64,000 nucleotides of DNA. Origin: Myxococcota bacterium (GTDB lineage Bacteria > Myxococcota_A > UBA796 > GCA-2862545). Where the stretch lies: assembly GCA_044356535.1 (NCBI GenBank), contig JBIKWC010000004.1:14707-78706 (forward strand). Direction: 5' to 3'. A model generated the notes under the pieces. The model was given only the letters and a program-made list of their open reading frames with translations. It was not told the origin of the DNA and searched no databases. Each line of letters starts with the position of its first letter. Position 1 is the stretch's first letter. Positions 1 through 15,394 of the stretch are shown in pieces. A program made the position numbers and the translations under genes.

Positions 1-193
1 CAATGCCACTTCGTCGGCGGCTGTTGTGGGGTGGGTCCCGACGTGACGTCGATCCAATGGGGCGCCAATCAATGGCTGCGACGACCGGGAGACTCTGCCG
101 AGGTGACCCGGCGGCTGATCACCATGAGGACTGCCTGATGGCGAGGCGCGGCACGCACGTTGCATGGGGTGATGATGCGAGTGTAGACAGACA

Positions 194-532
194 ATGAGTC
201 GATACCAAGGAGTGACCATGAATTTCGAACCGCTCGAGTCGATGAACAAGGACCACCTGCTGCGGCTGCTGGGACTGCAGGAGCGCAGGAGCTACTCCGC
301 GGTCCTGGCGCCCGCGCTGGGGGTGTTCGGGGTGGGGCTGTTGGTCGGGGCCACCCTGGGCTTGCTGGCTGCGCCGCGTCCTGGCCGTGAGCTCCGGAAC
401 GACCTCGCCCGGCGCGTGAAGGGCGCACCGTCTGCCGTCGCGAAGCTGCCCGAGCGGGCGACCGAGGCGTACCACTGGATGACCGACAAGGCGGACGTGG
501 ACCGTGAGGACCACCAGGAGGTCAATTCGTAG
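194..532 (+). CDS. small membrane protein, hypothetical (one predicted TM helix; alternative start at 218)
   Basis: Protein-like composition. Hydrophobic stretch LAPALGVFGVGLLVGATLGLLAA followed by charged C-terminus. Lies convergent to a DUF883-like gene. Confidence 0.45.
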   Translation: MSRYQGVTMNFEPLESMNKDHLLRLLGLQERRSYSAVLAPALGVFGVGLLVGATLGLLAAPRPGRELRNDLARRVKGAPSAVAKLPERATEAYHWMTDKADVDREDHQEVNS

Positions 533-617
533 CCAGCTCGCCCTCCGGAGCGTGCCCACCCCCGCCGTCCACGAGAGACGGCGGGGGCCCGGGCCCCCGG
601 GACCACGGTCGCTGGTG

Positions 618-1019
618 CTATCGGCGGTGACCCACCACGAACCCGAGCGCCACCGCCAATCCCACACAGACCACGGTGTGTTCTCGGAGCACGGTTCGCC
701 AGTCGATCCGGCGGGTCGCCTCGGCCTGGGCCCCGCGTTTCAAGTCGGCGAGAGCGGCACGGGTGCGGGCGCGGGCTTCCGTCAGGCGGAGCTGCAGGGC
801 CTCGATCTTCGGGGCGAGGACCAGGGCGGTGTCGGTCGTGGGCAACGTCTGCCTCCGGTCGGGTAGCTCTGCAACGGCCGTGCCGGGTCCGCGGACGTTC
901 TTGGACGGCCTTGTCGGACGGAGACCGACAGGTGGATGCGGCCCCCTGATGACACGGGAACAGGCATCCGCGACGACACCGCCCGGGACCTCATTCGGGG
1001 ACGTTGTAGCTGTCGACAC
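618..1019 (-). CDS. DUF883/ElaB-YqjD-like C-terminally membrane-anchored protein (start uncertain)
   Basis: C-terminus ...WRTVLREHTVVCVGLAVALGFVVGHRR matches the DUF883-family tail (TM helix ending in RR) after a coiled-coil-like region. The only in-frame ATG (1019) lies inside the left edge of the 946-2020 tandem repeat; no ATG/GTG/TTG downstream of the repeat boundary. Confidence 0.4.
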   Translation of the reverse strand: MSTATTSPNEVPGGVVADACSRVIRGPHPPVGLRPTRPSKNVRGPGTAVAELPDRRQTLPTTDTALVLAPKIEALQLRLTEARARTRAALADLKRGAQAEATRRIDWRTVLREHTVVCVGLAVALGFVVGHRR

Positions 1020-1051
1020 GGTCCCGTGTCGCGTTCCCCACGGGGGTCTTC

Positions 1052-1447
1052 ATGTCCTTTCAGCCCAGCGGTTCTCTCCTGCTCCTCGACGGAGATTCGA
1101 GCGGACTCCACGACCTCGGTCCGGTCCTGCGCGACCTCGGCCGCGGCCTGGTGCGGGTCTACGACGTGGAGGCGGCGCTCCAGGTGATCGCCAGCCTCCG
1201 CGTGGCCCTGGTGGTGGTGTCCCCCCCCCTCCAGGCCGACGGGTCACCCGACCTGTCCTGGCTCCACTCCCTGCACGACTGGGACCGGGGTCTCCCCGTG
1301 GTCCTGGTCTCGCGGGACGGCTCTCCAGCCGCGCCGAACGTGCGGGCGACGGTGTCCCGTCCCGTGGCGCCCGCCGCGCTGGTCGAGGCCTGCAGGGACG
1401 TGTTGGCCGCTGGACGTCACCTGGCCCAGGAGGCTGCGCAGGCCTGA
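1052..1447 (+). CDS. response-regulator receiver-like (pseudo-receiver) domain protein, copy 1
   Basis: Aligns to the CheY fold (LLLLDGD ~ acidic pocket, VVVSPP in place of the phospho-acceptor D-x-x-M-P, LPVVLVS ~ T-loop region, SRPV ~ KPF). The phospho-Asp is replaced by Ser. Confidence 0.6.
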   Translation: MSFQPSGSLLLLDGDSSGLHDLGPVLRDLGRGLVRVYDVEAALQVIASLRVALVVVSPPLQADGSPDLSWLHSLHDWDRGLPVVLVSRDGSPAAPNVRATVSRPVAPAALVEACRDVLAAGRHLAQEAAQA

Positions 1448-1581
1448 ACGTGGCGGTGGTTCTGGGTCCTGTAGGACGGTGACCGACACGCCCCGCGGGC
1501 CCTGACTACGGCGGAACAGGCATCCGCGACGACACCGCTCGGAGGCCCATTCGGGGAAGTTGTAGAGGTCGACACGGTCCC

Positions 1582-2016
1582 GTGTCGCGTTCCCCTGGGG
1601 GTCTCATGACCATTCAGCCCACGACCGTTCAGCCGAGCGGTTCCCTCCTGCTCCTCGACGGAGACTCGAGCGGACTCCACGACCTCGGTCCGGTCCTGCG
1701 CGACCTCGGCTGCGGCCTGGTGCGGGTCTACGACCTGGAGGCGGCGCTGCAGGTGATCGCCAGCCTCCGGGTGGCCCTGGTGGTGGTGTCTCCACCGCTG
1801 CTTTCGGACGGGTCACCGGACCTGTCCTGGCTCCGCTCCCTGCACGACTGGGACCGGGCGCTCCCCGTGATCCTGGCCTCGCGGGACGGCTCCGCGTCCA
1901 CTCCGTACGTGCGAGCCCCGGTCTCCGGACCCGTGGAGCCTGCCGCGCTGGTCCAGGTCTGCAGAGAGGCGCTGGCCTCCGGGCGCCACCCGGCCCTGGA
2001 GTCGGCGCAGGCCTGA
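1582..2016 (+). CDS. response-regulator receiver-like (pseudo-receiver) domain protein, copy 2 (alt start 1606)
   Basis: Paralog of 1052-1447 with the same degenerate receiver motifs, plus a 12-residue N-terminal insertion. Confidence 0.6.
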   Translation: MSRSPGGLMTIQPTTVQPSGSLLLLDGDSSGLHDLGPVLRDLGCGLVRVYDLEAALQVIASLRVALVVVSPPLLSDGSPDLSWLRSLHDWDRALPVILASRDGSASTPYVRAPVSGPVEPAALVQVCREALASGRHPALESAQA

Positions 2017-2023
2017 GCGGAGG

Positions 2024-2080
2024 TCAGGTGACGAGCCCGCGCATCGTGAGGTTCGTCACCTGGTACCCAGGACCGGGACA
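2024..2080 (-). pseudogene. remnant of a GNAT acetyltransferase 3' end (duplicate of the 3600-3660 region)
   Basis: 22-bp identity cgcatcgtgaggttcgtcacct with the 3' end of the GNAT gene at 3600-4082. Encoded tail GYQVTNLTMR versus GYEVTNLTMR; no upstream coding body. Confidence 0.5.
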
Positions 2081-2170
2081 CCGGTGTCGCGGATCGGGCC
2101 GCGATACCCGCGATGTTCGGCGTTGGAGCGTATGGCCCGGTTGTTGCTGTTGGGTCGGCAAGGAGTGACC

Positions 2171-2896
2171 ATGCGCCCGACCCTCGCCCTCGTCCTCACC
2201 TTCGCCGCCTGCAGCAGCCCCGACCCGGACGCGCAGGCGCTCGCCGACCAGCAGCTCGAGTCCGCCAGCGTGGTGTCGCCCGCGTGCACCGACGGCGTGT
2301 GCGACGGCAGCGACCTGGCCACCGGCGCCCTCGCGGTGACCCGCAGCGCGGGCGCGTCTTCGGTCGAGCTGGAGCTGACGGTGGACGCCGTCACCGCGGC
2401 GGTGCACTCGCCCACGGGCGTGGACCTCTCGGCGTTCGACGGGACCGAGGTCACCCTGGCGGTGCGGAGCGACTGGATGGTCCCCGCGAGCCTCGCGCTC
2501 CGCGACGCGGAGGGAGTGGTGTACGTCGTGGAGTCCGGCCAGGGCGACGCGTTCGGGGTGTTCGACGTGCAGTACGGGAAGGAGCTCGGGCGGCTGGTGG
2601 ACGACGCGGACTACGAGCTGACGTTCCGCGCGCTCGACGTGGCCACCGACGACGGCGTGGTGTCCGTGGAGCCCGGAGAGGTCGTCACGGTCCGCGTCGA
2701 CGGGGCGAGCTGGCGCTTCGCGGCCATCGCGGCGTACGAGGTCGGCACGATCCCGGGCGGCGAGTACGCGGACTGCGGCGGCGAAGCCCCGATGGCGAGC
2801 TACGAGGCGGTGCGCCTCCCCGAGGAGGCAGCGTTCGACCCGATCGTCCGCCCCGCGGGCCTGCCGATGGCGCTGTACAGCGGCTGCGGGGGCTAG
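2171..2896 (+). CDS. lipoprotein, hypothetical
   Basis: Signal peptide plus lipobox MRPTLALVLTFAAC. Acidic, Cys-containing mature region. Stop TAG at 2894-2896. Confidence 0.7.
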   Translation: MRPTLALVLTFAACSSPDPDAQALADQQLESASVVSPACTDGVCDGSDLATGALAVTRSAGASSVELELTVDAVTAAVHSPTGVDLSAFDGTEVTLAVRSDWMVPASLALRDAEGVVYVVESGQGDAFGVFDVQYGKELGRLVDDADYELTFRALDVATDDGVVSVEPGEVVTVRVDGASWRFAAIAAYEVGTIPGGEYADCGGEAPMASYEAVRLPEEAAFDPIVRPAGLPMALYSGCGG

Positions 2897-2900
2897 GCAG

Positions 2901-3046
2901 CCCCTCACCCCGACCCCTCTCCCCGAAGGGGAGAGGGGGTAGCACCAGGCGGTTCCCCTCCTGCGGTGCGAGGGGGTGGATGGACGGCCCGATCCCTCAG
3001 CGCATCCCCCTCCCCAGCATCGGGGGAGAGGGTCGGGGTGAGGGGG
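2901..3046. repeat. GC-rich compound palindromic intergenic element (REP/MITE-like; includes a terminator-like hairpin directly after the 2171-2896 stop)
   Basis: Local hairpin CCCCTCTCCCC-GAA-GGGGAGAGGGG (2914-2938). Second hairpin at 3006-3032. Long-range inverted repeat cccctcaccccgacccc (2901-2917) pairing with gggtcggggtgaggggg (3030-3046). Confidence 0.6.
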
Positions 3047-3088
3047 CAGGAAGGGCTACAGGAGCGGGCTGCGCGTTACCCCCCGCGG

Positions 3089-3625
3089 ATGCGTCGGGTC
3101 CACGTCGTCGGCACCTCGGGCAGCGGCAAGTCCACGGTCGCGGCGGCGCTCGCGCGCAGGCTCGGGGTCCCGCACGTGGAGCTCGACGCGCTGCATTGGC
3201 TCCCCGGGTGGCAGGAGCGACCCGTCGCCGAATTCCGCGCGCACCTGTCCGCCGCGCTCGTCCAGAGCGGGTGGGTGGTCGACGGCAACTACGCGGCGCA
3301 GTCCCGCGATCTCGTGTGGGCCGCGGTCGACACCGTCGTGTGGCTCGACCTGCCGCGGCGGACCGTGATGCGCCAGGTGGTGCAGCGGACGGCGCGTCGT
3401 TGGCTGCGGCGCGAGCAGCTCTGGGGCGGGAACCGGGAGTCCCTCCGCAAGACCCTCCTCAGCCGCGACTCCGTGGTGTGGTGGGCGTGGTCGACCCACG
3501 CGCGGCGCCGGACCGAGTACGGCCAGGCGCTGCGCTCCGTGCCGTTCCGCGTCATCCACCTCCGCAGCCGCGCCGAGGTGGACCAGTGGCTCGCCACCGT
3601 CAGCCCACCCGCTTCCGCATCGTGA
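3089..3625 (+). CDS. P-loop NTPase, adenylate-kinase-like / topology modulation protein family
   Basis: Walker A VVGTSGSGKST at the N-terminus. Small (~178 aa) AK-like fold with aromatic-rich C-terminus. Confidence 0.75.
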   Translation: MRRVHVVGTSGSGKSTVAAALARRLGVPHVELDALHWLPGWQERPVAEFRAHLSAALVQSGWVVDGNYAAQSRDLVWAAVDTVVWLDLPRRTVMRQVVQRTARRWLRREQLWGGNRESLRKTLLSRDSVVWWAWSTHARRRTEYGQALRSVPFRVIHLRSRAEVDQWLATVSPPASAS

Positions 3626-4082
3626 GGTTCGTCACCTCGTAGCCCGCCCGTTCGTAGAGGCGACGGGCGACCACGTTGTGACCGAAGACGTGGAGCTCGA
3701 CGCTGCTCGCTCCCCGCGCACGCGCCTCCTCCTCGGCGAGACCCAGCACCCCCTCGCCGTAGCCGCGGCCCCGGTACGCGGGGTCGACGATGATGTCGTA
3801 GATCCACAGCCAGGTCCGCGCGCCCTGCGTCTTGCGGGCGAACCACAGCAGCCCTACGCGGTTCCCGGAGGCGACCTCGCGGACCGAGAACAGGAACTGG
3901 TTCTCGGTGCGGAGCCCGTCGGGCAGGAGCCGGGCGTACGCCGCCACCGCCGTCCGCTGCGCCTCGTCGGGCGCCAGGTCCTCGCTCCGCGCTGCCTCCC
4001 GGGCGTAGTCCGGCACCGCGGAAGCGAGGTACTCCGCGAGCTCGGGGTCGGTGAAGGGGACGAGGTGGAGCGGGTGGGCCAT
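3600..4082 (-). CDS. GNAT family N-acetyltransferase
   Basis: Motifs IYDIIVDPAYRGRGYG (acetyl-CoA-binding R/Q-x-x-G-x-G/A), HVFGHNVVARRLYERAGY. 160 aa. Confidence 0.85.
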   Translation of the reverse strand: MAHPLHLVPFTDPELAEYLASAVPDYAREAARSEDLAPDEAQRTAVAAYARLLPDGLRTENQFLFSVREVASGNRVGLLWFARKTQGARTWLWIYDIIVDPAYRGRGYGEGVLGLAEEEARARGASSVELHVFGHNVVARRLYERAGYEVTNLTMRKRVG

Positions 4083-4143
4083 GGGCGGAGCCTACCCCGC
4101 GGAGCACCCGGGCGGCCGCGGTCGCTGGTCGTTAGGGACGCGC

Positions 4144-6009
4144 ATGAACCGACGGCAGCTGTTGGCGTTGGGCGCCGTCGCGGGTGGCGCGGTCCTGGGC
4201 GGGGGCCTGTGGGGCATCCAGCCTCGCGGCACCACCTGGCCCGCCGTCGGAACCGGTCGGCGCGCGCGCCCCGAAGGTGAGCGACGGGTCGTGATCGTGG
4301 GGGGCGGCCTCGCGGGGATGTCGGCCGCTGCGGTGCTCGCGGCCCGGGGGTACCGGGTCACGTTGTGCGAGGCCGGCGACGCGCTCGGGGGCAAGCTCGC
4401 GGGCTGGCCCATCACCGTCGAGGGCGTCGAGGTGCCGATGGAGCACGGGTTCCACGGCTTCTTCCGGCAGTACTACAACCTGCGGTCCCTCCTCGCCGAG
4501 GCCGGCGCCGACCGCGACCTCGTGCCCCAGTCGGCGTACGAGATCCTGTTCCGCGACCGCCCGTCCGAGGGGTTCCGCGCCGGGTGGACGCCGTTCCCCT
4601 TCAGCCTGCTCGAGGTCCTCGCCCGGTCCCCCACGCTCTCGCTCGGCGACGTGGCCGGCGACCGGCCCGGCATGAACGCGCTCCTCGCGTACGACCCGGT
4701 CGCGACCTTCGCGAAGTGGGACCACCTCGACGCAGCGGCGTTCGTGCGCGAGGGCCAGCTGGGCGGGCCGTTCGACGACCTCGTGTTGCGCCCGTTCGGG
4801 CAGGCGTCCATGAACGCCCTCGACCGGTTCTCCGCCGCCGAGCTCGTGCGGTTCTTCCACTTCTACATGCTCGGCAACCCCGAAGGCCTCGGGTTCGACG
4901 CGCTCGGGCGCGGGGTCCACCTCTCGGTGCTGGCCCCGTTGCGGGCGCACCTCGAGCGGCTCGGAGTGGAGATTCGGACGGGCGCGCGCGTGCGCCGGGT
5001 GGTGGTGCGCGGGGGTCGCGCGGTGGGCGTGGTCCTCGACGCGCCGGGGGCGGGACCGACTGCAGCGGCACCGGTGGCGGACATCCCGCCGGCTGGGTGG
5101 GTCGCCATGGCCGACGGCGCGGTCTTCGTGCGCAGGGCCGGCGCCGGGTTCGAGGCCCGCGACGCGCGCTGCACCCACCTCGGCTGCCGCGTGGCGCTGG
5201 AGGGCGCAGGGTTCCGTTGTCCCTGCCACGCCGGCCGCTACGACGCCGACGCGCGGCCGGTCTCCGGGCCTCCGAAGGCGCCGCTGGTGGCGCTGCCGGC
5301 GACGGTGGTGGGCGACACGGTCTCCATCGGCAGTGGGCCGGCGGACGAGCTCCTGGCGGCCGACGCGGTCGTGCTCGCGACGGAGGTGCGCGGGTTCCGG
5401 GCGCTGGTGGCGCAGAGCGAGCTGGACGACGTGGACCCGGCGCTGGTGGCGTCTGCCCGCCACGCCGGGGAGGCCGACCCGTACGCGGTCGTCCGGTTCT
5501 GGTTCGATCGACCCACGCTCCCGTCCCGGGCCCCGTTCTACACCGTGGCAGGGTACGAATGGACGGACTCCCTCGCCATCTATTCGGCGTTTCAGGAGCC
5601 CTTCCGGTCCGACCCGGGCCGCGCGGTGGTGGAGACGCACGCGTACGGCATCCCGCCGGCGCTCCAGGGGCCGCCGTCCACCTACCGCGACGCGCTCCTG
5701 CGCGAGCTCCGCGAGGCGTTCCCCGAGCTGGCGGACGCGAAGATCCGCCACGAGGAGGTGATGGCGCAGTCGAACTTCACGCGGTTCGGGCCCGGGGACT
5801 TCGCCCGCCGACCCACCGTCGCCACCGCGGTGCCGAACCTGTTCGTCGCCGGCGACCACGTGCAGCTGCCGTTCCCGGCGTTCCTGATGGAGGCCGCGGT
5901 GGCGTCCGGACGGCTCGCCGCCAACCACGTGTGTGCAGCGGACGGCGTCACCGAGGAGCACATCCCGACGGTGGCGCTGCGCGGGCCGCTGGCCGACGTG
6001 CTGGGGTAG
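4144..6009 (+). CDS. FAD-dependent oxidoreductase (amine oxidase / phytoene-desaturase superfamily) with embedded Rieske [2Fe-2S] motif and Tat signal
   Basis: Twin-arginine signal MNRRQLLALGAVAGGAVLG. Dinucleotide-binding VVIVGGGLAGMSAAAVLAARG. Rieske-type CTHLGC-(16)-CPCH in the middle of the fold. Confidence 0.8.
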   Translation: MNRRQLLALGAVAGGAVLGGGLWGIQPRGTTWPAVGTGRRARPEGERRVVIVGGGLAGMSAAAVLAARGYRVTLCEAGDALGGKLAGWPITVEGVEVPMEHGFHGFFRQYYNLRSLLAEAGADRDLVPQSAYEILFRDRPSEGFRAGWTPFPFSLLEVLARSPTLSLGDVAGDRPGMNALLAYDPVATFAKWDHLDAAAFVREGQLGGPFDDLVLRPFGQASMNALDRFSAAELVRFFHFYMLGNPEGLGFDALGRGVHLSVLAPLRAHLERLGVEIRTGARVRRVVVRGGRAVGVVLDAPGAGPTAAAPVADIPPAGWVAMADGAVFVRRAGAGFEARDARCTHLGCRVALEGAGFRCPCHAGRYDADARPVSGPPKAPLVALPATVVGDTVSIGSGPADELLAADAVVLATEVRGFRALVAQSELDDVDPALVASARHAGEADPYAVVRFWFDRPTLPSRAPFYTVAGYEWTDSLAIYSAFQEPFRSDPGRAVVETHAYGIPPALQGPPSTYRDALLRELREAFPELADAKIRHEEVMAQSNFTRFGPGDFARRPTVATAVPNLFVAGDHVQLPFPAFLMEAAVASGRLAANHVCAADGVTEEHIPTVALRGPLADVLG

Positions 6010-7414
6010 GGGAGCGGCCCAGGAACCCCGGAAGCGTGACGGGCTCCACGTGGTTCACGTTGAACTCCTCGGTGTCCGAACACGACACCGTGGCCTCCCA
6101 GCGCGCGGTGGTCTCCCCCGGCCCGTACTCCCGAGCGGTCCGCTGGTCGGCGCAGGTCACGAGGGCGCCCCCGTCCGGCAGGCGGTAGTGGCTGCCGATG
6201 ACCCGGCAGTGCACACCGAGATCGATGGCCTCCACGAGGGTCGCCACGGAGGTGGCGAGGTCGAGCCGGTACGTCAGCGCGCGGGAGTTCTCGTCGTCGG
6301 GGCCGTTGTCGAACAGCGTGAGGGTGCCGTCCGCGTGCAGCACGGGGTGGTGCTGGCCGTCGAAGTCGGCCCGCTGGCCCGGCAGCGCCGTGGTGAAGCG
6401 GAAGGTGGAGTCGAGGGTGGAGCCCCCCGCGGCGAGGATCCAGTCGACCGCGCCGGCGTCGGGCCGATCCGGGCCCGCGACCTGGAACACGGCGTCGAGG
6501 TACCGGAACGAGATCACCACGTCGCCCGCGGGCGTCCACGTGATCCCGTTGGCGTGTGCCCAGTCTCCGCTCCCGGGGAACTCCCTGCGCCAGAAGTTCT
6601 CGTCGGCCCGGGTGGGGGGCGGCGCGTCACCGAGGTGGTCGACCAGGCTCCACGTCGAGCTCACGGCTCCGGCGCCGTCGAGCACGTAGAAGCCGTCGAG
6701 GACGTAGCTCTGGCCGTTCGACCACGGGTACTCCTCGGCGTTGAGGACCAGCAGCCGCTCGCCGCCCGGCTCCCGCGCGAGATCGTGGTGGACGGGTCGG
6801 TCGAACGGGCCGAGCCGCACCCGCGCCCCGTCCACGCCCACGTCTTCGATGATCTGGCGTTGGACGGAGAACAACACCGAGTCCGGCGGATCGAAGGCGT
6901 AGCCGCTGCTCTGGGTGCCGGAGGACTCGATCCAGCGGATGGTGCCGTCGGGTGACGCCAGCAGGACCCACACCAGGCCCCCACAGGTGCCGTTCAGCAG
7001 CAGGTGCTCCGTGGAAGGCTCCCCGACGACCGCGATCGACAGCGGCACCGGCAGGGGACCGGTGCGGAACCGACCGGACACGCTCACGGTCTGCTCCGTC
7101 GCGGTCCAGGCCACCTCACTGCTCGGGGCCAGCCCCCACAACGTGACCGCGTCCGTCTCCGTCCCGGTGGTGAACGTCTCGCCCGCGGACGACCACGTCA
7201 CGGAGACGGTGCCCGGGGTGTCCCGGAGGAGCGTGCAGTCCCACCGCAAGGCGTTGTCGGCCTGGGGGCTGCAGTCCATCCCCCGGAGGCTCGGCGTGGT
7301 CGCGGTGGTCGTGGTGTGGGTGGACGGGGTGGTGGACAGCGGGAGCGGCAGCGGCGCGGTGGGCCTCGTGGACGGCTGCGGTTCGTGGCAGGCGGCGAGG
7401 ATCCAGGAGAGCAT
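5948..7414 (-). CDS. beta-propeller lipoprotein, arylsulfotransferase (ASST)-like (family assignment tentative)
   Basis: Lipobox MLSWILAAC; Pro/Thr-rich linker; ...HANGITWTPAGDVVISFRYLDAVFQV... reminiscent of the ASST family. Its 3' end overlaps the convergent oxidoreductase by ~60 bp. Confidence 0.65.
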   Translation of the reverse strand: MLSWILAACHEPQPSTRPTAPLPLPLSTTPSTHTTTTATTPSLRGMDCSPQADNALRWDCTLLRDTPGTVSVTWSSAGETFTTGTETDAVTLWGLAPSSEVAWTATEQTVSVSGRFRTGPLPVPLSIAVVGEPSTEHLLLNGTCGGLVWVLLASPDGTIRWIESSGTQSSGYAFDPPDSVLFSVQRQIIEDVGVDGARVRLGPFDRPVHHDLAREPGGERLLVLNAEEYPWSNGQSYVLDGFYVLDGAGAVSSTWSLVDHLGDAPPPTRADENFWRREFPGSGDWAHANGITWTPAGDVVISFRYLDAVFQVAGPDRPDAGAVDWILAAGGSTLDSTFRFTTALPGQRADFDGQHHPVLHADGTLTLFDNGPDDENSRALTYRLDLATSVATLVEAIDLGVHCRVIGSHYRLPDGGALVTCADQRTAREYGPGETTARWEATVSCSDTEEFNVNHVEPVTLPGFLGRSPTPARRPAARAAPPSGCAPR

Positions 7415-7443
7415 TCGGGCAGCATAACGCCAGTCCCGCAGCG

Positions 7444-8571
7444 TCAGCCCAACGCGCGCAGCGCCGACCGCAGTCGCGCCGCCGCCTCACCGTCCCACGC
7501 CGGGAGCGCCCGCTCCACCAGCGGACGCAGAGCCTGGACCACGTGGACCGGGCCCTGCGCGTCACCCAGCGCATACACCGCGAGCGTCGCCTCTTCGCGG
7601 ACCCGCGGGTCCGGGTCCGACAACGCGAGGCCGAGGTGTGGTGCCGCCGTCCGCAGGTCCACGAGGTCCGTCGACCACGCCGGGAACCGGTGGATCGCGG
7701 CGAGGCGCGCCCCCGGGTCGGCGGCGAACAGCGCCGCCCGCGCGGTGTTCACCTCGTCGGGCGCTTCGACCCCGGGCTCCATCCCCGCCGCGATCGCGTC
7801 GGCGACCGCGTGGCGGGTGGGCAGGTCGCCGTCGACCGCCAGGAGGAGCGTGCGGCGCGCGACCACCGGATCCCGCGTCGACACCGTGTCCGCCGCTGCC
7901 TTCCGCACGGTCGCGTTCGCGTGGCAGAGCAGCGTCCCCAGCGCCGCCGCGTCGCCCGTCGCGAGCGACTGGCGGGTCAGGAACCGCGCGGCGAGCGTGC
8001 GGGTCGCGGCTTCCCGGTCCGCGAGGCGAGGCGTCAGGAGCTCCGCGAGGCGCGCCGACCCGTCCCCTCCCGCCGCGAGCAGGATGGCGGCTTCGCACTG
8101 CGCGCCGATCGTCCGGTACGCGCCCGTCGTCTTCCGGCGGTCGACGCGCCCGTCCCACACGAGCCCGAGGAGCTCCTCGAAGGGCTCGCGGCCGTCGCGC
8201 AGCCAGCGCGCGAGCAGGTAGTAGCCGAGGAACACCTGCTGCGGGTCCGCGTCGGCCAGAAGGGCACGGGCCGCGTCGAGCGAGCCTGGGGGGAAGAAGC
8301 CGCCGTTCGCCACGTCGAGCAGGAGCGCGCGGCGATGGTCGGACGGAGCGCCGGCGAGGACCGCGGTGAACCGAGCGTCGTCGCCCCGGTGGAGCGCGGC
8401 CAGGCCGTGCAGCGCCCGCAGGATCCAGCGGTTGTCCTCGACGGCGTCGTCGACCGGCGGCAACGCGAGCACCGCGCCCTCGCGCACCCGCCGCCGCAGG
8501 TGCTCGGCGCCGTCACCGCGCGATCGGGCACCACCGCGCAGGACCTTGTCGAGCGCCTGATCGTCGGTCAC
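7444..8571 (-). CDS. HEAT-repeat domain protein
   Basis: Repeated alpha-helical units with DPDPRVREEATLAVYALGD-type HEAT/PBS-lyase motifs. Upstream of and co-directional with the ASST-like gene. Confidence 0.7.
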   Translation of the reverse strand: MTDDQALDKVLRGGARSRGDGAEHLRRRVREGAVLALPPVDDAVEDNRWILRALHGLAALHRGDDARFTAVLAGAPSDHRRALLLDVANGGFFPPGSLDAARALLADADPQQVFLGYYLLARWLRDGREPFEELLGLVWDGRVDRRKTTGAYRTIGAQCEAAILLAAGGDGSARLAELLTPRLADREAATRTLAARFLTRQSLATGDAAALGTLLCHANATVRKAAADTVSTRDPVVARRTLLLAVDGDLPTRHAVADAIAAGMEPGVEAPDEVNTARAALFAADPGARLAAIHRFPAWSTDLVDLRTAAPHLGLALSDPDPRVREEATLAVYALGDAQGPVHVVQALRPLVERALPAWDGEAAARLRSALRALG

Positions 8572-8674
8572 GGGTCCCCCCGGCCCGGAGGATACCCGCG
8601 GTGCGGCCGGTCTGCTCGTGCCTCGGACTGGTGGACGGTCGGGGTCGGAGGTGGTCGAGGACCGCGCGAAGCCC

Positions 8675-8992
8675 TCAGGACCCGCCGGACGTCACCAACC
8701 GCAGCGCGAGCCCGAACGCGATCAGCCCGCAGAGCGCACGCAACGCAGCGATGACCCGGGCCGGTCCCGCACCGAGCGGGAGCCCACGCACCACCACCGT
8801 CCCGGCGCGGAGGTCGCGGGCGGCGCCGAACACGAGCCATCCTCCTGCGGCCAGGAGGATCAGCACCCGGAGGGTCACCGGCAAGGAGAGCGCTCCCGGA
8901 CGTGAGGGTCGGCCGCAGTGTACCCCGCGCGACCACCGGTCCGACCGCGCTTCGCAGGTGGTGGCAGGTCGTTCCCGCTGGTGAGTTCGCAT
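8675..8992 (-). CDS. small two-TM membrane protein, hypothetical
   Basis: Two hydrophobic helices (LRVLILLAAGGWLVFGA; VIAALRALCGLIAFGLALRLV). Weak coding evidence. Confidence 0.3.
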   Translation of the reverse strand: MRTHQRERPATTCEARSDRWSRGVHCGRPSRPGALSLPVTLRVLILLAAGGWLVFGAARDLRAGTVVVRGLPLGAGPARVIAALRALCGLIAFGLALRLVTSGGS

Positions 8993-9010
8993 AGGCTGGG
9001 CGGGGAGTGG

Positions 9011-9628
9011 ATGGTGACGAGCGTCACGGCCATCTGGACCATGAACTTCGTGGGCTTCGCTCCCATGACGGTCGAGCAGGGGGCGGTGTGCGCGCACACC
9101 GTGCCCGAAGCGGGGCAGGTCTCTCCGGAGATCGGATTCCTCCACCTCACGGACCCAGCCGATGGATCGCGGGTGGGATCTGCAGGCTTCTCCGACGATT
9201 GGGCCGTCGCGCTCGGGTTGAATCCCGCGCGCTACGTCGTGGATGTGTCCTTTCGGCGGGAGCATCCGGTCGCGGTCGACGTCGTGGCGGGTCACTGCAC
9301 GTTCGTGGACGTGGGGCCCCTTCCCGTGCCTTCGGGCCTGGATTGGAGTGAGCCGGTTCGACGACGGAACACGGTCAACGTCGTGTTGGTGGAACTGGAC
9401 GTGGACCGGTGGGATCGGATCACCGTCACGTGCCGCGGACCACACCGGCCGGATTGGACGACACCGGGGTCGGCGGCCTGGCCGGCGCTCTCACCCCGCT
9501 GCACGCCGGCTCTCCGCCTTCGGCGCCATGGGGAGCCGGCGGTTCGCCTGCATCCCGAACGACTCGGGGTGACGAAGTGGGAGGTCGACGATGTCGATCC
9601 AGCACCTGCACACCGGCCCGAGCGTTGA
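9011..9628 (+). CDS. hypothetical protein
   Basis: Non-repetitive composition with W/Y/F/H/D/E (MVTSVTAIWTMNFVGFAPMTVEQG...). No recognisable domain. Confidence 0.35.
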   Translation: MVTSVTAIWTMNFVGFAPMTVEQGAVCAHTVPEAGQVSPEIGFLHLTDPADGSRVGSAGFSDDWAVALGLNPARYVVDVSFRREHPVAVDVVAGHCTFVDVGPLPVPSGLDWSEPVRRRNTVNVVLVELDVDRWDRITVTCRGPHRPDWTTPGSAAWPALSPRCTPALRLRRHGEPAVRLHPERLGVTKWEVDDVDPAPAHRPER

Positions 9629-9667
9629 CCGTGACGCCGCGCCGGCTCGCCCGGTTAGTCCCGCCCC

Positions 9668-11269
9668 GTGCGCCGGCTCGCGTGGGGACTGCTGACGATC
9701 ACCCTCGGCCTCCTCGTCGGAGCGCCGCTGGTCCGGCTGTTCGCCGAGCTCGATGCCGCTGCCCTCGCCGCGCTGCTCGACCCCCTCGAGCTGCGGGCGG
9801 CGAAGCACACCGTCGTGCTCGTGCTCGGCACCACCGGGGCGTCGCTCGTGGGCGGGGTGACGCTCGGCGTGTTGCTGGCCCGCACCGACCTGCCCCACGC
9901 CGACCGCCTGCGCACGGCGCTCGTGATCCCGTACGTCCTGCCGCCGTACGTCACCGCCCTCGGCTGGCTGCTGCTCCTCAACCCCGCGACGGGCTGGTTG
10001 TACCGGGGCCTCGACCCCTACTCGCTCGCCGGGATGGTGTTCGTCCTGGCCGTCGAACACACGCCGCTCGTGTTGCTGGCCACCGTCGACGCCCTCGGCC
10101 GGATGGACGGCTCGCTCGAGGAGCAGGCGCGCCTCGCCGGCTGCGGCCCCGTGGGCACCCTCGGCCGGGTCACGCTCCCGCTGGTGGCGCCGGCCATCCT
10201 GGCGTCCGCGTCGTTCGTCGCGTCGTCTTCGGCGGCGGCGTTCGGGGTGCCGTACCTGTTGTCCACCGGCAGCGCCGACCCCACCTTCGTGTTGACGACG
10301 CGCATCGCGCAGGCGCTCGACCTCGACCCGGCGTCCGGGCGGCCCCGCGCGGTGGCGTTGTCGCTCGTGTTGCTCGCCATCGGCGTGGTGCTCCCGGGGC
10401 TCCTCGGGTGGTGGCTCCGCGGCCGGTCGTACACCACGGTGCGCGGGAAGGTGGTGCGCCCCTCGGTCCTCGCGCTCGGGGCCTTCCGGTGGCCAGCGTT
10501 CGCGGCGGTGGTCGCCAGCCTCGCCGCCACCACGGCGCTCCCCCTCGGCGCCATCGCGCTCGCGTCGCTGCGCCCGAACCTCGGCGCCGACGGCTTCACG
10601 CTCGCGCACTACGCGCGGCTGGGCTCGGGTCCCGCGGCCGGTGTGTTCCTGCGCTCCACGCTCACCGCGGGGGTCGCTGCGGCTGCAGCGGTCGGGCTCG
10701 GGTCGCTGGTGGCGTTCCGGGACGTGCGCGACGGGCGGGACCGCGGGCTCCTCGCCACCGTGGCGCGCCTGCCGTACGCCGTGCCAGGGACCGTCCTCGC
10801 GCTCGGGATGTTGCTCGTGTTCTCGCAGCCCGTCCGCCTCATCCTGCTCGAGCGGGTCACGTTCGAGCTGCGCCTGGCCGACACCGCCGCGTTCCTGGCC
10901 CTGGCGTGGACCATCAAGTACCTGGCCCTGCCGGTGGGCACGGTGGGGGCGGCGCTGCAGGCCATCGACCCCGCGCTCGAGGAGGCCGGGCGCATCAGCG
11001 GCGCCGGGCCCTGGGCGGTGGCGCGGCGGATCGTGGCACCCCTGCTCGCGCCGAGCCTGTTGTCCGCCTTCGCGCTGGTGTTCCTGCCCGCGTTCTCGGA
11101 GGTGACGATGGCCTCGCTGCTGGCGGGGCCGCGCACGCCGGTCGTGGGCACGTTGCTGTTCGAGCGCCAGACCTACGGAGACCCACCCGGCGCCGCAGCG
11201 CTCGCGGTGGTCGTGGTCGTGGTCGTGCTGTCGGTGCAGACCGGGGTCCGGAGCCTCAGCCGGGCGTGA
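9668..11269 (+). CDS. ABC transporter permease, two-domain Fe(III)/thiamine-type (FbpB/ThiP-like)
   Basis: 533 aa with two repeats of a ~6-TM permease module; EAA-like loops; Pro/Gly-rich TM helices. Confidence 0.8.
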   Translation: MRRLAWGLLTITLGLLVGAPLVRLFAELDAAALAALLDPLELRAAKHTVVLVLGTTGASLVGGVTLGVLLARTDLPHADRLRTALVIPYVLPPYVTALGWLLLLNPATGWLYRGLDPYSLAGMVFVLAVEHTPLVLLATVDALGRMDGSLEEQARLAGCGPVGTLGRVTLPLVAPAILASASFVASSSAAAFGVPYLLSTGSADPTFVLTTRIAQALDLDPASGRPRAVALSLVLLAIGVVLPGLLGWWLRGRSYTTVRGKVVRPSVLALGAFRWPAFAAVVASLAATTALPLGAIALASLRPNLGADGFTLAHYARLGSGPAAGVFLRSTLTAGVAAAAAVGLGSLVAFRDVRDGRDRGLLATVARLPYAVPGTVLALGMLLVFSQPVRLILLERVTFELRLADTAAFLALAWTIKYLALPVGTVGAALQAIDPALEEAGRISGAGPWAVARRIVAPLLAPSLLSAFALVFLPAFSEVTMASLLAGPRTPVVGTLLFERQTYGDPPGAAALAVVVVVVVLSVQTGVRSLSRA

Positions 11270-14693: not shown

Positions 14694-15394
14694 TGTGGTT
14701 CGTCGTCCCAGCGTTCGCCATGGCGCCCGTGACCGGGGACTTCGATGGGGACGGCAAGCCCGAGACCGTCGTCGTCGCGAAGGAGAAGCTCCGGGTGCCC
14801 CCGCTCGAGGACGTGTACTGCGAGGAGGGCACCTGCGAGCTCGAGGTGGTCGACGTGGTCGCCGACAAGCCTGGCCAGGAGCTCGTGGTGTGCCAGCTCG
14901 GGCCCCGCGACGACCGCTCGTGCGAGGTCCTGACGAAGCGCGCGGGCGCCTGGTCCACGGTGAAGTTCCCGGAGGCCCTGGGCACGCCGAGCTGGGTGTC
15001 GGCGTCGGGGAACGGAATCGTGCTCGGCTGGTACCAGGACCGCTGGTACACCCGGCTCGAGAAGTTCACGTGGAACGCCGGGACGGTGGCCCACGTCAAG
15101 CAGCCGCTCCTGTCGACCACCACGGAGCGCCACCCGGAGCCGTGGACCTTTCCTGTGGACCGCGTGTTCCCGATCTACGATCAGCCCGGGGGCAGCGTCG
15201 TCGTCGCGAACGTGGCGACCGGGCGGTCCGCGACCCTGGTGGGCGAGTCCCCCGAGCACCTGTACCGCTCGGGCTGGGACGACGGCAAGCGCTGGTTCCT
15301 GGTGCGCACGCAGTCGGGCCTCACGGGCTGGGCCACGCTCGCGTCCATCGTCGCGGCATCGGACGAGCTCGTGATGCGGGCCTCTGCGGGCTGA
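14693..15394 (+). CDS. hypothetical protein with FG-GAP-like DFDGDGKPE motif
   Basis: MWFVVPAFAMAPVTGDFDGDGKPE...; translationally coupled to the upstream CxxCH gene. Real-protein composition. Confidence 0.55.
   Translation: MWFVVPAFAMAPVTGDFDGDGKPETVVVAKEKLRVPPLEDVYCEEGTCELEVVDVVADKPGQELVVCQLGPRDDRSCEVLTKRAGAWSTVKFPEALGTPSWVSASGNGIVLGWYQDRWYTRLEKFTWNAGTVAHVKQPLLSTTTERHPEPWTFPVDRVFPIYDQPGGSVVVANVATGRSATLVGESPEHLYRSGWDDGKRWFLVRTQSGLTGWATLASIVAASDELVMRASAG

Follow-up and report, generated by a model that had tools for sequence, protein, structure and literature searches.

The 64,000 bp window analysed here (positions 14,707–78,706 of the forward strand of contig JBIKWC010000004.1, Myxococcota bacterium assembly GCA_044356535.1; positions below are counted from its first nucleotide) carries two head-to-tail copies of a short gene cassette, each encoding a small protein with a predicted receiver fold. 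The locus raises a question in two parts: is this a young duplication that can still amplify or contract, as the original prediction had it, and what might a receiver without its phospho-acceptor aspartate be doing in duplicate? The answer that we consider probable is that of an old tandem duplication, maintained by selection, of a ~558 nt cassette consisting of (i) a whole upstream control region, and (ii) one stand-alone receiver-fold gene, the product of which is proposed to function independently of phosphorylation.

The tandem cassette and the fold of its products

Comparison of the window with itself by BLASTN and by a repeat search recovered two direct tandem units, in agreement with the earlier claim of a directly repeated receiver-gene cassette with ~558 bp units that are ~85–90% identical. 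BLASTN of the region against the window aligned unit 1 with unit 2 (coordinates in Table 1) at 83% identity over 554 columns including gaps (E 1e-165), and the mean column identity between the two units in a MAFFT alignment was 89%. The repeat search returned two in-register families: 1051–1350 with 1620–1919 (89%), and 944–1045 with 1500–1601 (85%). Start to start, the units lie 556 nt apart upstream of one indel and 569 nt apart downstream of it (period ~558 nt). On the left, weak similarity in the MAFFT alignment possibly reaches ~887/1452; unit 2 starts a few bases past the stop codon of the first open reading frame, ORF1 (1445–1447), and on the right, similarity stops 3 nt past the stop codon of ORF2. 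In each unit, one intact ORF is preceded by ~140–165 nt of upstream DNA. The indel is the sole length difference between the two ORFs. The aligner drew it as a 13 nt gap; read in frame, it is a 15 nt micro-duplication in ORF2 (halves 1609–1623 and 1624–1638, encoding TIQPT and TVQPS), which is also present in the L005 ortholog introduced below. ORF1 and ORF2 are 86.7% identical in nucleotide sequence over their common 390 nt core, and 81% identical in protein.

Relatives of the pair are few: among ~15 billion proteins, the family consists of five sequences, namely the two paralogs, their two orthologs from a second lineage (locus L005), and the more distant P0003 (123 aa, ~40% identical, with Ser at the phospho-site and IDPEP for the acidic pair). 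The ortholog proteins are identical to P0008 and P0009, which are present in ENA/Logan assemblies too. With ORF1 as query, a word-indexed search through 5.8 billion proteins recovered nothing beyond the two paralogs, and HMMER, run exhaustively over 1.84 billion representatives, added one true relative, P0003; two further HMMER candidates, P0004 and P0005, were rejected as repeat-protein false positives. A three-sequence profile search of protein collections gave no additional member, and scans of genome and metagenome contigs with the receiver (REC) alignment gave no relative. Within the window, a weak tblastn REC match at 29.6–29.8 kb lies inside an 1118 aa ORF; it does not look receiver-like by eye, and was dismissed without a domain search. 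P0003 shares a metagenome with the window (JGI sample 3300059473), where it lies on a 262 kb contig, its first 4 nt overlapping the end of a GH6 glycoside hydrolase gene. Some automatic names in this neighbourhood are misleading: the single-domain, 131 aa P0008 is called a 'DNA-binding NtrC family response regulator', and P0007, a homolog of the 75 aa membrane protein encoded beside the repeat, is called 'primosomal protein N''.

Sequence-level matches to the proteins are weak throughout, yet mostly colinear with receiver domains. The sole Pfam match is PF06490 (the REC-like domain of FleQ), for which ORF1 and its L005 ortholog score 24.0 and 24.2 bits and ORF2 and its ortholog 16.1 and 16.6 bits, against a cut-off of 22; P0003 gives no match. 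PF00072 (Response_reg) matches neither ORF1 nor ORF2 at E ≤ 1, and none of P0003, P0008 and P0009 at E ≤ 10. The three-sequence profile matched 14 PDB sequences, 11 of them receiver domains that are colinear over residues 8–120, and weak NCBIfam matches fall on the receiver parts of GlrR, PgtA, NtrX, DivK and VirA. An AlphaFold2 (AF2) model built from three sequences, including the distant P0003, has a predicted local distance difference test score (pLDDT) of 79.1 and a predicted template modelling score (pTM) of 0.75. Its secondary structure runs β1 (8–13), α1, β2, α2, β3 (51–57), α3, β4 (83–87), β5 (99–102), α5, with helix 4 not predicted. Foldseek returned 368 PDB matches to the model at E ≤ 0.001, and the 50 best-ranked are nearly all receiver domains; among the matches listed, RR468 (3dge_C) is best (E 6e-7), and the FleQ REC domain (4wxm), NtrX, HupR, DctD and CheY also appear (template modelling scores, TM, 0.65–0.77).

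Active-site positions were assigned from profile alignments to solved receivers, the AF2 model, and an alignment to CheY. The position of the acidic pair reads D13-G14 (LDGD), that of the phospho-Asp S57 (VVVSPP), that of the conserved Ser/Thr S87 (kept), and that of Lys-Pro R103-P104 in ORF1 and G-P in ORF2. In the model, strands end at D13, S57 and S87, and R103-P104 comes after strand 5. Three of the five catalytic residues of a canonical receiver are absent, while the features by which a pseudo-receiver, or aspartate-less receiver (ALR), is defined (PMC12632262) are found: a predicted receiver fold, and a Ser ending strand 3 in all five family members. Alignments and model agree on both substitutions that had been predicted—Ser for the phospho-Asp, and Gly for one acidic Asp—and the receiver alignment puts Ser rather than Asp at the phospho-site. 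On this sequence and model evidence, the two proteins are receiver-fold, aspartate-less pseudo-receivers (the ALR subset). At the receiver-Lys equivalent, residue 108 of ORF2 is Gly (VSGPV), with Arg in ORF1, in both L005 orthologs and in P0003; the position is therefore without strict constraint in the family.

Could Ser57 itself be a regulatory phosphorylation site, so that the proteins are still phospho-switches, served by a Ser/Thr kinase? Myxobacteria encode many Ser/Thr kinases, the Ser is invariant in all five members, including P0003, and the pocket around it still has D13, D15 (or Glu), S87 and, in most cases, R103. Phosphorylation of Ser/Thr/Tyr-type ALRs was raised in the ALR survey, together with the statement that no example is known (PMC4395418). 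The same survey places the substitution in a wider frame: the Asp is missing from ~4% of receiver domains, and Ser is just one of its common replacements, the third commonest (15% of ALRs). Furthermore, no Ser/Thr kinase gene lies beside the locus (the P-loop 'AAA_33/SKI' neighbour is of the small-molecule-kinase type), and with five closely related sequences, conservation cannot be told apart from common ancestry. We regard a Ser switch as unlikely. The larger scenario that could be built on it, in which the receiver fold has been rewired from His-Asp to Ser/Thr signalling and the paralogs read one input and bind different partners, is similarly doubtful. We consider phosphorylation-independent function the most likely reading.

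Age, stability and selection

The orthologous locus was found via P0007 (77% identical to the 75 aa neighbour) in two other JGI metagenomes, as L005 and L006, which show no difference over 11.5 kb. The gene order there—YtxH, 75 aa gene, 131 aa gene, 136 aa gene—matches that of the window up to the REC pair. ORF1 is 94.6% identical in nucleotide sequence to the L005 131 aa gene, and ORF2 is 96.2% identical to the L005 136 aa gene; all four paralog pairs fall at 86.7–87.2%. Synonymous divergence (dS) is 0.07–0.10 between orthologs and 0.27–0.29 between paralogs. The paralog dS is thus about three times the ortholog dS, placing the duplication before the two alleles separated. Two paralogs taken from one genome are no more similar than two taken from different genomes, and the paralog/ortholog comparison of the window and L005 shows no sign of gene conversion between copies. 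The duplication is old and stably inherited, a second allelic lineage having both copies as 1:1 orthologs. The earlier description of the copies as 'recent' and 'nearly identical' is contradicted by this comparison: the paralogs are 87% identical in nucleotide sequence with a dS of 0.28, and both copies are already present in L005 and L006.

The same comparison bears on the proposal that the repeat is an active hot spot, recently duplicated and expanding or contracting by homologous recombination. The copies still have exact runs of 45, 28, 26 and 23 nt in common, runs of a length that could support RecA-dependent recombination, and the right flank has been rearranged. Set against these are the dS between copies, the presence of exactly two copies, in clean 1:1 orthology, in both lineages, and the lack of any trace of conversion. 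No single- or multi-copy form was found in public protein collections, where the only other relative is P0003. There is, in short, no evidence of amplification or contraction, and we consider a live hot spot quite improbable; recombination between the copies is conceivable, without trace left. Four further loci, L001–L004, from four metagenome-assembled genomes, were reached through homologs of the Rieske gene of the region (61–65% identity). They hold no REC homolog and none of the seven other region genes tested. They are uninformative on the state before the duplication.

Both genes are intact and under purifying selection. Their GC contents by codon position (0.81/0.50/0.87 for ORF1 and 0.77/0.52/0.88 for ORF2) resemble those of neighbouring genes, and GC at third positions (GC3; 0.87–0.89 in both) is of the coding type. 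By the Nei-Gojobori method, the paralogs differ by 26.5 synonymous and 25.5 non-synonymous changes (dS 0.28; non-synonymous divergence, dN, 0.098; dN/dS 0.35), a ratio below 1 (Fisher p 8e-4); between orthologs, dN/dS is 0.35–0.42 (pooled p 0.0075). Paralog divergence is largest in the C-terminal third (dS 0.51, dN 0.20; strand 5 and helix 5), a pattern suggestive of sub-functionalisation of the interaction surface.

These values also bear on the idea that the ORFs are functionless, decaying receiver-domain remnants of a larger NtrC/FleQ-type regulator. The top sequence matches are indeed receiver domains of NtrC-class regulators (FleQ, NtrX, GlrR, PgtA and HupR), the catalytic residues are gone, and the family is nearly orphan. 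Yet in both lineages the two genes are intact, with a dN/dS significantly below 1, they have gene-typical codon-position GC, and their upstream blocks are conserved. In addition, the REC genes are better kept between the window and L005 (95–96% identity) than the neighbouring YtxH and 75 aa genes (84–85%). Decay is, accordingly, highly improbable. Finally, the window does stem from a metagenome assembly, in which one gene or two strain variants could have been wrongly joined head to tail, but such an artefact is very unlikely indeed, given that 13% of coding positions and one in-frame indel distinguish the copies (dN/dS 0.35), that the two-gene layout recurs in a second allele (its DNA 88% identical over 2 kb; JGI 3300050337, JGI 3300045556 and ENA/Logan, the last through proteins of the L005 type), that NCBI and JGI both have the window allele, and that the two alleles were found on contigs of five separate lengths, from three or more samples, with two copies each.

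Upstream blocks and flanking DNA

The upstream DNA of each unit holds two blocks, A and C, that are invariant in four upstream regions (Table 1). An exact run of 26 nt between the units starts at 957/1513, with block A. Block C opens with a perfect 8-2-8 palindrome, which stops ~20 nt short of the ATG and has no further copy within the 64 kb window. With a total synonymous tree length of ~0.44, we estimate that 25–26 consecutive invariant positions are unlikely to be neutral. From its sequence, block C is a candidate operator for a dimeric factor, or a candidate 5' leader hairpin. RNA folds of both 5' leaders (z −0.6 and −1.8) and of the ORF1–ORF2 spacer were no better than those of shuffled sequences, and Rfam gave no match in 500–3200. 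Scans for sigma-70-type promoters and T-tract terminators found nothing in 500–2300, and no convincing extracytoplasmic function (ECF)-type or sigma-54-type promoter motif was seen by eye in the invariant blocks. Since each gene has its own copy of both blocks, the two genes are probably under common transcriptional or leader control.

Table 1. Positions of the tandem units, their genes and upstream blocks, and the flanking features in the 64,000 bp window.
Feature	Position	Strand	Evidence and remarks
Tandem repeat unit 1 (upstream region and ORF1)	912–1450	+	BLASTN, E 1e-165; alignments; left limit maybe ~887
Tandem repeat unit 2 (upstream region and ORF2)	1470–2019	+	BLASTN; alignments; may begin ~1452
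ORF1, 131 aa, single-domain aspartate-less pseudo-receiver (D13-G14-D15, S57, S87, R103-P104)	1052–1447	+	Codon GC, PF06490, AF2, Foldseek, ortholog
ORF2, 136 aa, ORF1 paralog; shares the Ser and Asp-to-Gly substitutions, Gly at the Lys-equivalent position	1606–2016	+	Codon GC, ortholog
ORF2 N-terminal 15 nt micro-duplication (TIQPT/TVQPS)	1609–1638	+	Sequence reading, alignments
Block A, unit 1: GGAACAGGCATCCGCGACGACACCG	957–981	+	Invariant in four upstream regions (two paralogs, two lineages); presumed promoter or regulatory element
Block A, unit 2: GGAACAGGCATCCGCGACGACACCG	1513–1537	+	Invariant in four upstream regions
Block C, unit 1: CGACACGGTCCCGTGTCGCGTTCCCC; palindrome CGACACGG-TC-CCGTGTCG (1014–1031), then CGTTCCCC	1014–1039	+	Invariant in four upstream regions
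Block C, unit 2: CGACACGGTCCCGTGTCGCGTTCCCC	1570–1595	+	Invariant in four upstream regions
Divergent neighbour, 75 aa, hydrophobic C-terminal segment ending in RR	618–845	-	TTG start, GGAGG, public gene call, codon GC; outside the repeat
GNAT 3'-end relic, 45 nt, at the ancestral GNAT position	2024–2068	-	Ends in YQVTNLTMRGLVT before the stop, against YQVTNLTMRKLVT in the L005 GNAT; colinear L005 match ends at 2068
DNA absent from L005, replacing the ancestral GNAT body	2069–3074	+	Lipoprotein ORF 2171–2896 and palindromic element ~2900–3047
Kinase-like P-loop gene (3089–3625, +) and GNAT gene (3600–4082, -), in the order opposite to L005	3075–4102	.	BLASTN blocks

To the left, the duplication had been thought to begin inside the only ATG-initiated frame (618–1019) of a divergent, DUF883-like gene, and so to have copied the 5' end of that gene. 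The ORF at 618–1019 (133 aa) starts with GTG and contains no ATG codon. Its GC by codon position is of the coding type in 618–845 (0.75/0.53/0.86) and flat in 846–1019 (0.69/0.66/0.69). At 845 there is a TTG codon, with a GGAGG ending 6 nt upstream, and public gene calls give a 75 aa product in both alleles. Compared with L005, the extension 846–1019 contains a 2 nt and a 1 nt indel, so that the upstream 'codons' within the repeat are read in another frame there. The start of the repeat (887–912) lies 40–65 nt outside the 75 aa coding sequence. The apparent 5' extension is thus, judged from codon composition and frame, a spurious long ORF in high-GC DNA: the part of it inside the repeat is non-coding, and the divergent gene is not duplicated. 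Nor does the family name hold: the 75 aa product has no Pfam match at E ≤ 10, DUF883 included, and no NCBIfam match, and the 133 aa ORF has only a weak Pfam match to DinB_2. The likeness of the 75 aa product to DUF883/ElaB-YqjD presumably lies only in a hydrophobic C-terminal segment ending in RR.

To the right, a fragment of the 3' end of the GNAT gene follows ORF2, with a 27/29 nt match between 2040–2068 and 3616–3644 (BLASTN, E 4e-6) and a 22 nt exact core at 2040–2061. The existence of this fragment, and its value as a mark of local rearrangement, had been predicted correctly; its coordinates had been placed 2 nt off, and the relic as a whole is longer (Table 1). In L005, the GNAT gene and the second REC gene are convergent, their stop codons 7 nt apart, and the last GNAT codons (ending in YQVTNLTMRKLVT and the stop) form a long hairpin. 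In the window, a hairpin at 2023–2063 directly follows ORF2 (−38.5 kcal/mol, z −4.9, with 0/200 shuffles as good). The relic hairpin is probably kept because it terminates the ORF2 transcript.

Beyond the relic, L005 and the window differ in gene order. BLASTN blocks pair 3075–3612 with L005f 9926–10463 (kinase-like gene) and 3611–4102 with L005f 9427–9918 (GNAT gene), and the new kinase/GNAT junction at 3611–3612 is a 2 nt overlap (GC). The order swap is consistent with a tandem duplication of [GNAT-kinase] after which the body of the first GNAT and the second copy of the kinase were lost. The rearrangement concerns the right flank, not the REC repeat itself. Both C-termini at the junction are altered: before the stop, the kinase ends in WLATVSPPASAS (WLATGGSPA in L005) and the GNAT protein in MRKRVG (MRKLVT in L005).

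Several other observations were made in the flanking DNA. The ORF at 2171–2896 encodes a putative lipoprotein, with a signal peptide ending in LTFAAC, a GC3 of 0.98, and no Pfam or NCBIfam match. The palindromic element is ~150 nt long, with arms at 2901–2939 and 3007–3045 (DNA fold −50 kcal/mol, z −3.0), and has no other copy in the window. An identical 15 nt sequence, CAAGGAGTGACCATG, comprising a ribosome-binding site and start codon, occurs at 206–220 and 2159–2173, before the YtxH and lipoprotein genes; its recurrence may be chance or a preferred translation-start context. Along 1–11121, identity to L005 climbs steeply: it is 77% in 1–217, 84% in YtxH, 85% in the 75 aa gene, 95–96% in the REC genes, 90% in the kinase gene and 95% in the GNAT gene; the match resumes from 4141 at 99%, and stays at 99–99.5% onward. 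From the sequence, the step at ~4100–4140 has the look of a boundary left by recombination between two strains that are otherwise almost identical. Within the 99%-identical block, 1.2 kb of the window (7463–8662) is absent from L005, coinciding in the public gene calls with a 375 aa gene that has a faint HEAT match.

Known pseudo-receivers and a proposed function

Pseudo-receivers are common, and how they act is for the most part unknown (PMC12632262). The present proteins resemble surveyed ALR and pseudo-receiver (PsR) domains (PMC4395418, PMC12632262) in several respects: the receiver fold, a replaced phospho-Asp, the loss of further pocket residues, a kept strand-4 Ser/Thr, and orphan genes with no kinase gene alongside. 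Unlike the surveyed domains, they are unrecognised by PF00072, stand alone at 131–136 aa with no output domain, are predicted to be missing helix 4, and belong to a family confined to one uncultured lineage.

Three better-known systems offer partial parallels. The first is the N-terminal REC-like domain of FleQ (PF06490; PDB 4wxm), which provides the only matching Pfam model, contributes chains to the Foldseek list (TM 0.65–0.67), is likewise non-phosphorylatable, and works via dimerisation. The proteins here differ from FleQ in having no AAA+ or DNA-binding domain and only ~22% identity to it; ORF2, its ortholog and P0003 fall below the PF06490 cut-off, and canonical receivers such as RR468 fit the AF2 model at least equally well. 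An identity as FleQ/NtrC-type enhancer-binding regulators was excluded, these being single-domain proteins of 131 and 136 aa without an AAA+ sigma-54 activation domain. The second parallel, with FrzS of Myxococcus xanthus, concerns mode of action only: FrzS contains a myxobacterial pseudo-receiver that serves as a protein-binding module rather than as a phospho-switch (PMC12632262). Unlike the proteins here, it has a long coiled-coil domain and uses an α3-β4-α4 surface, and no sequence relationship was detected. The third is with the single-domain response regulators CheY, DivK and RR468, which are of equal size and fold and include the best structural match; these possess the full set of five catalytic residues and receive phosphoryl groups from histidine kinases, whereas the present proteins are without three of the five.

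Put together, the model and alignments predict that the two proteins would accept no phosphoryl group from a histidine kinase at the usual site. By analogy with characterized pseudo-receivers (PMC12632262), they would most likely act as phosphorylation-independent binding modules that (i) bind or dimerise with a partner, (ii) sequester it, or (iii) are controlled through their own abundance. As their closest sequence relatives are receivers of the NtrC/FleQ class, a receiver domain of this class is a plausible partner. Expression of both copies would probably be coordinated via their own upstream blocks, with the GNAT-relic hairpin probably ending the transcript after ORF2.

A number of points weigh against this interpretation. 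Firstly, PF00072 matches no member, the PF06490 cut-off is passed only by ORF1 and its ortholog, and the AF2 model rests on three sequences (a two-sequence run gave a pLDDT of 44). With helix 4 not predicted, the usual α4-β5-α5 dimer surface may be absent. Secondly, the neighbours (YtxH, the 75 aa membrane protein, GNAT, the P-loop kinase and Rieske/amine oxidase) give no functional lead. Thirdly, transcription units, promoter and terminator are inferred only, given the empty promoter and terminator scans, and synteny is between two close lineages only.

As a genomic feature, such a tandem pair of orphan genes for Ser-type pseudo-receivers is ordinary, and its importance is modest. Part of its value is corrective: the duplication is old and stable rather than a live hot spot, and the neighbouring gene is neither truncated nor copied. 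Alongside it, the GNAT/kinase swap with its 45 nt hairpin relic fits a gene-order change by duplication and then loss. For the family itself, this Ser-type, stand-alone pair, predicted to be without helix 4, provides a compact case for asking what pseudo-receivers bind, and whether the Ser is modified.

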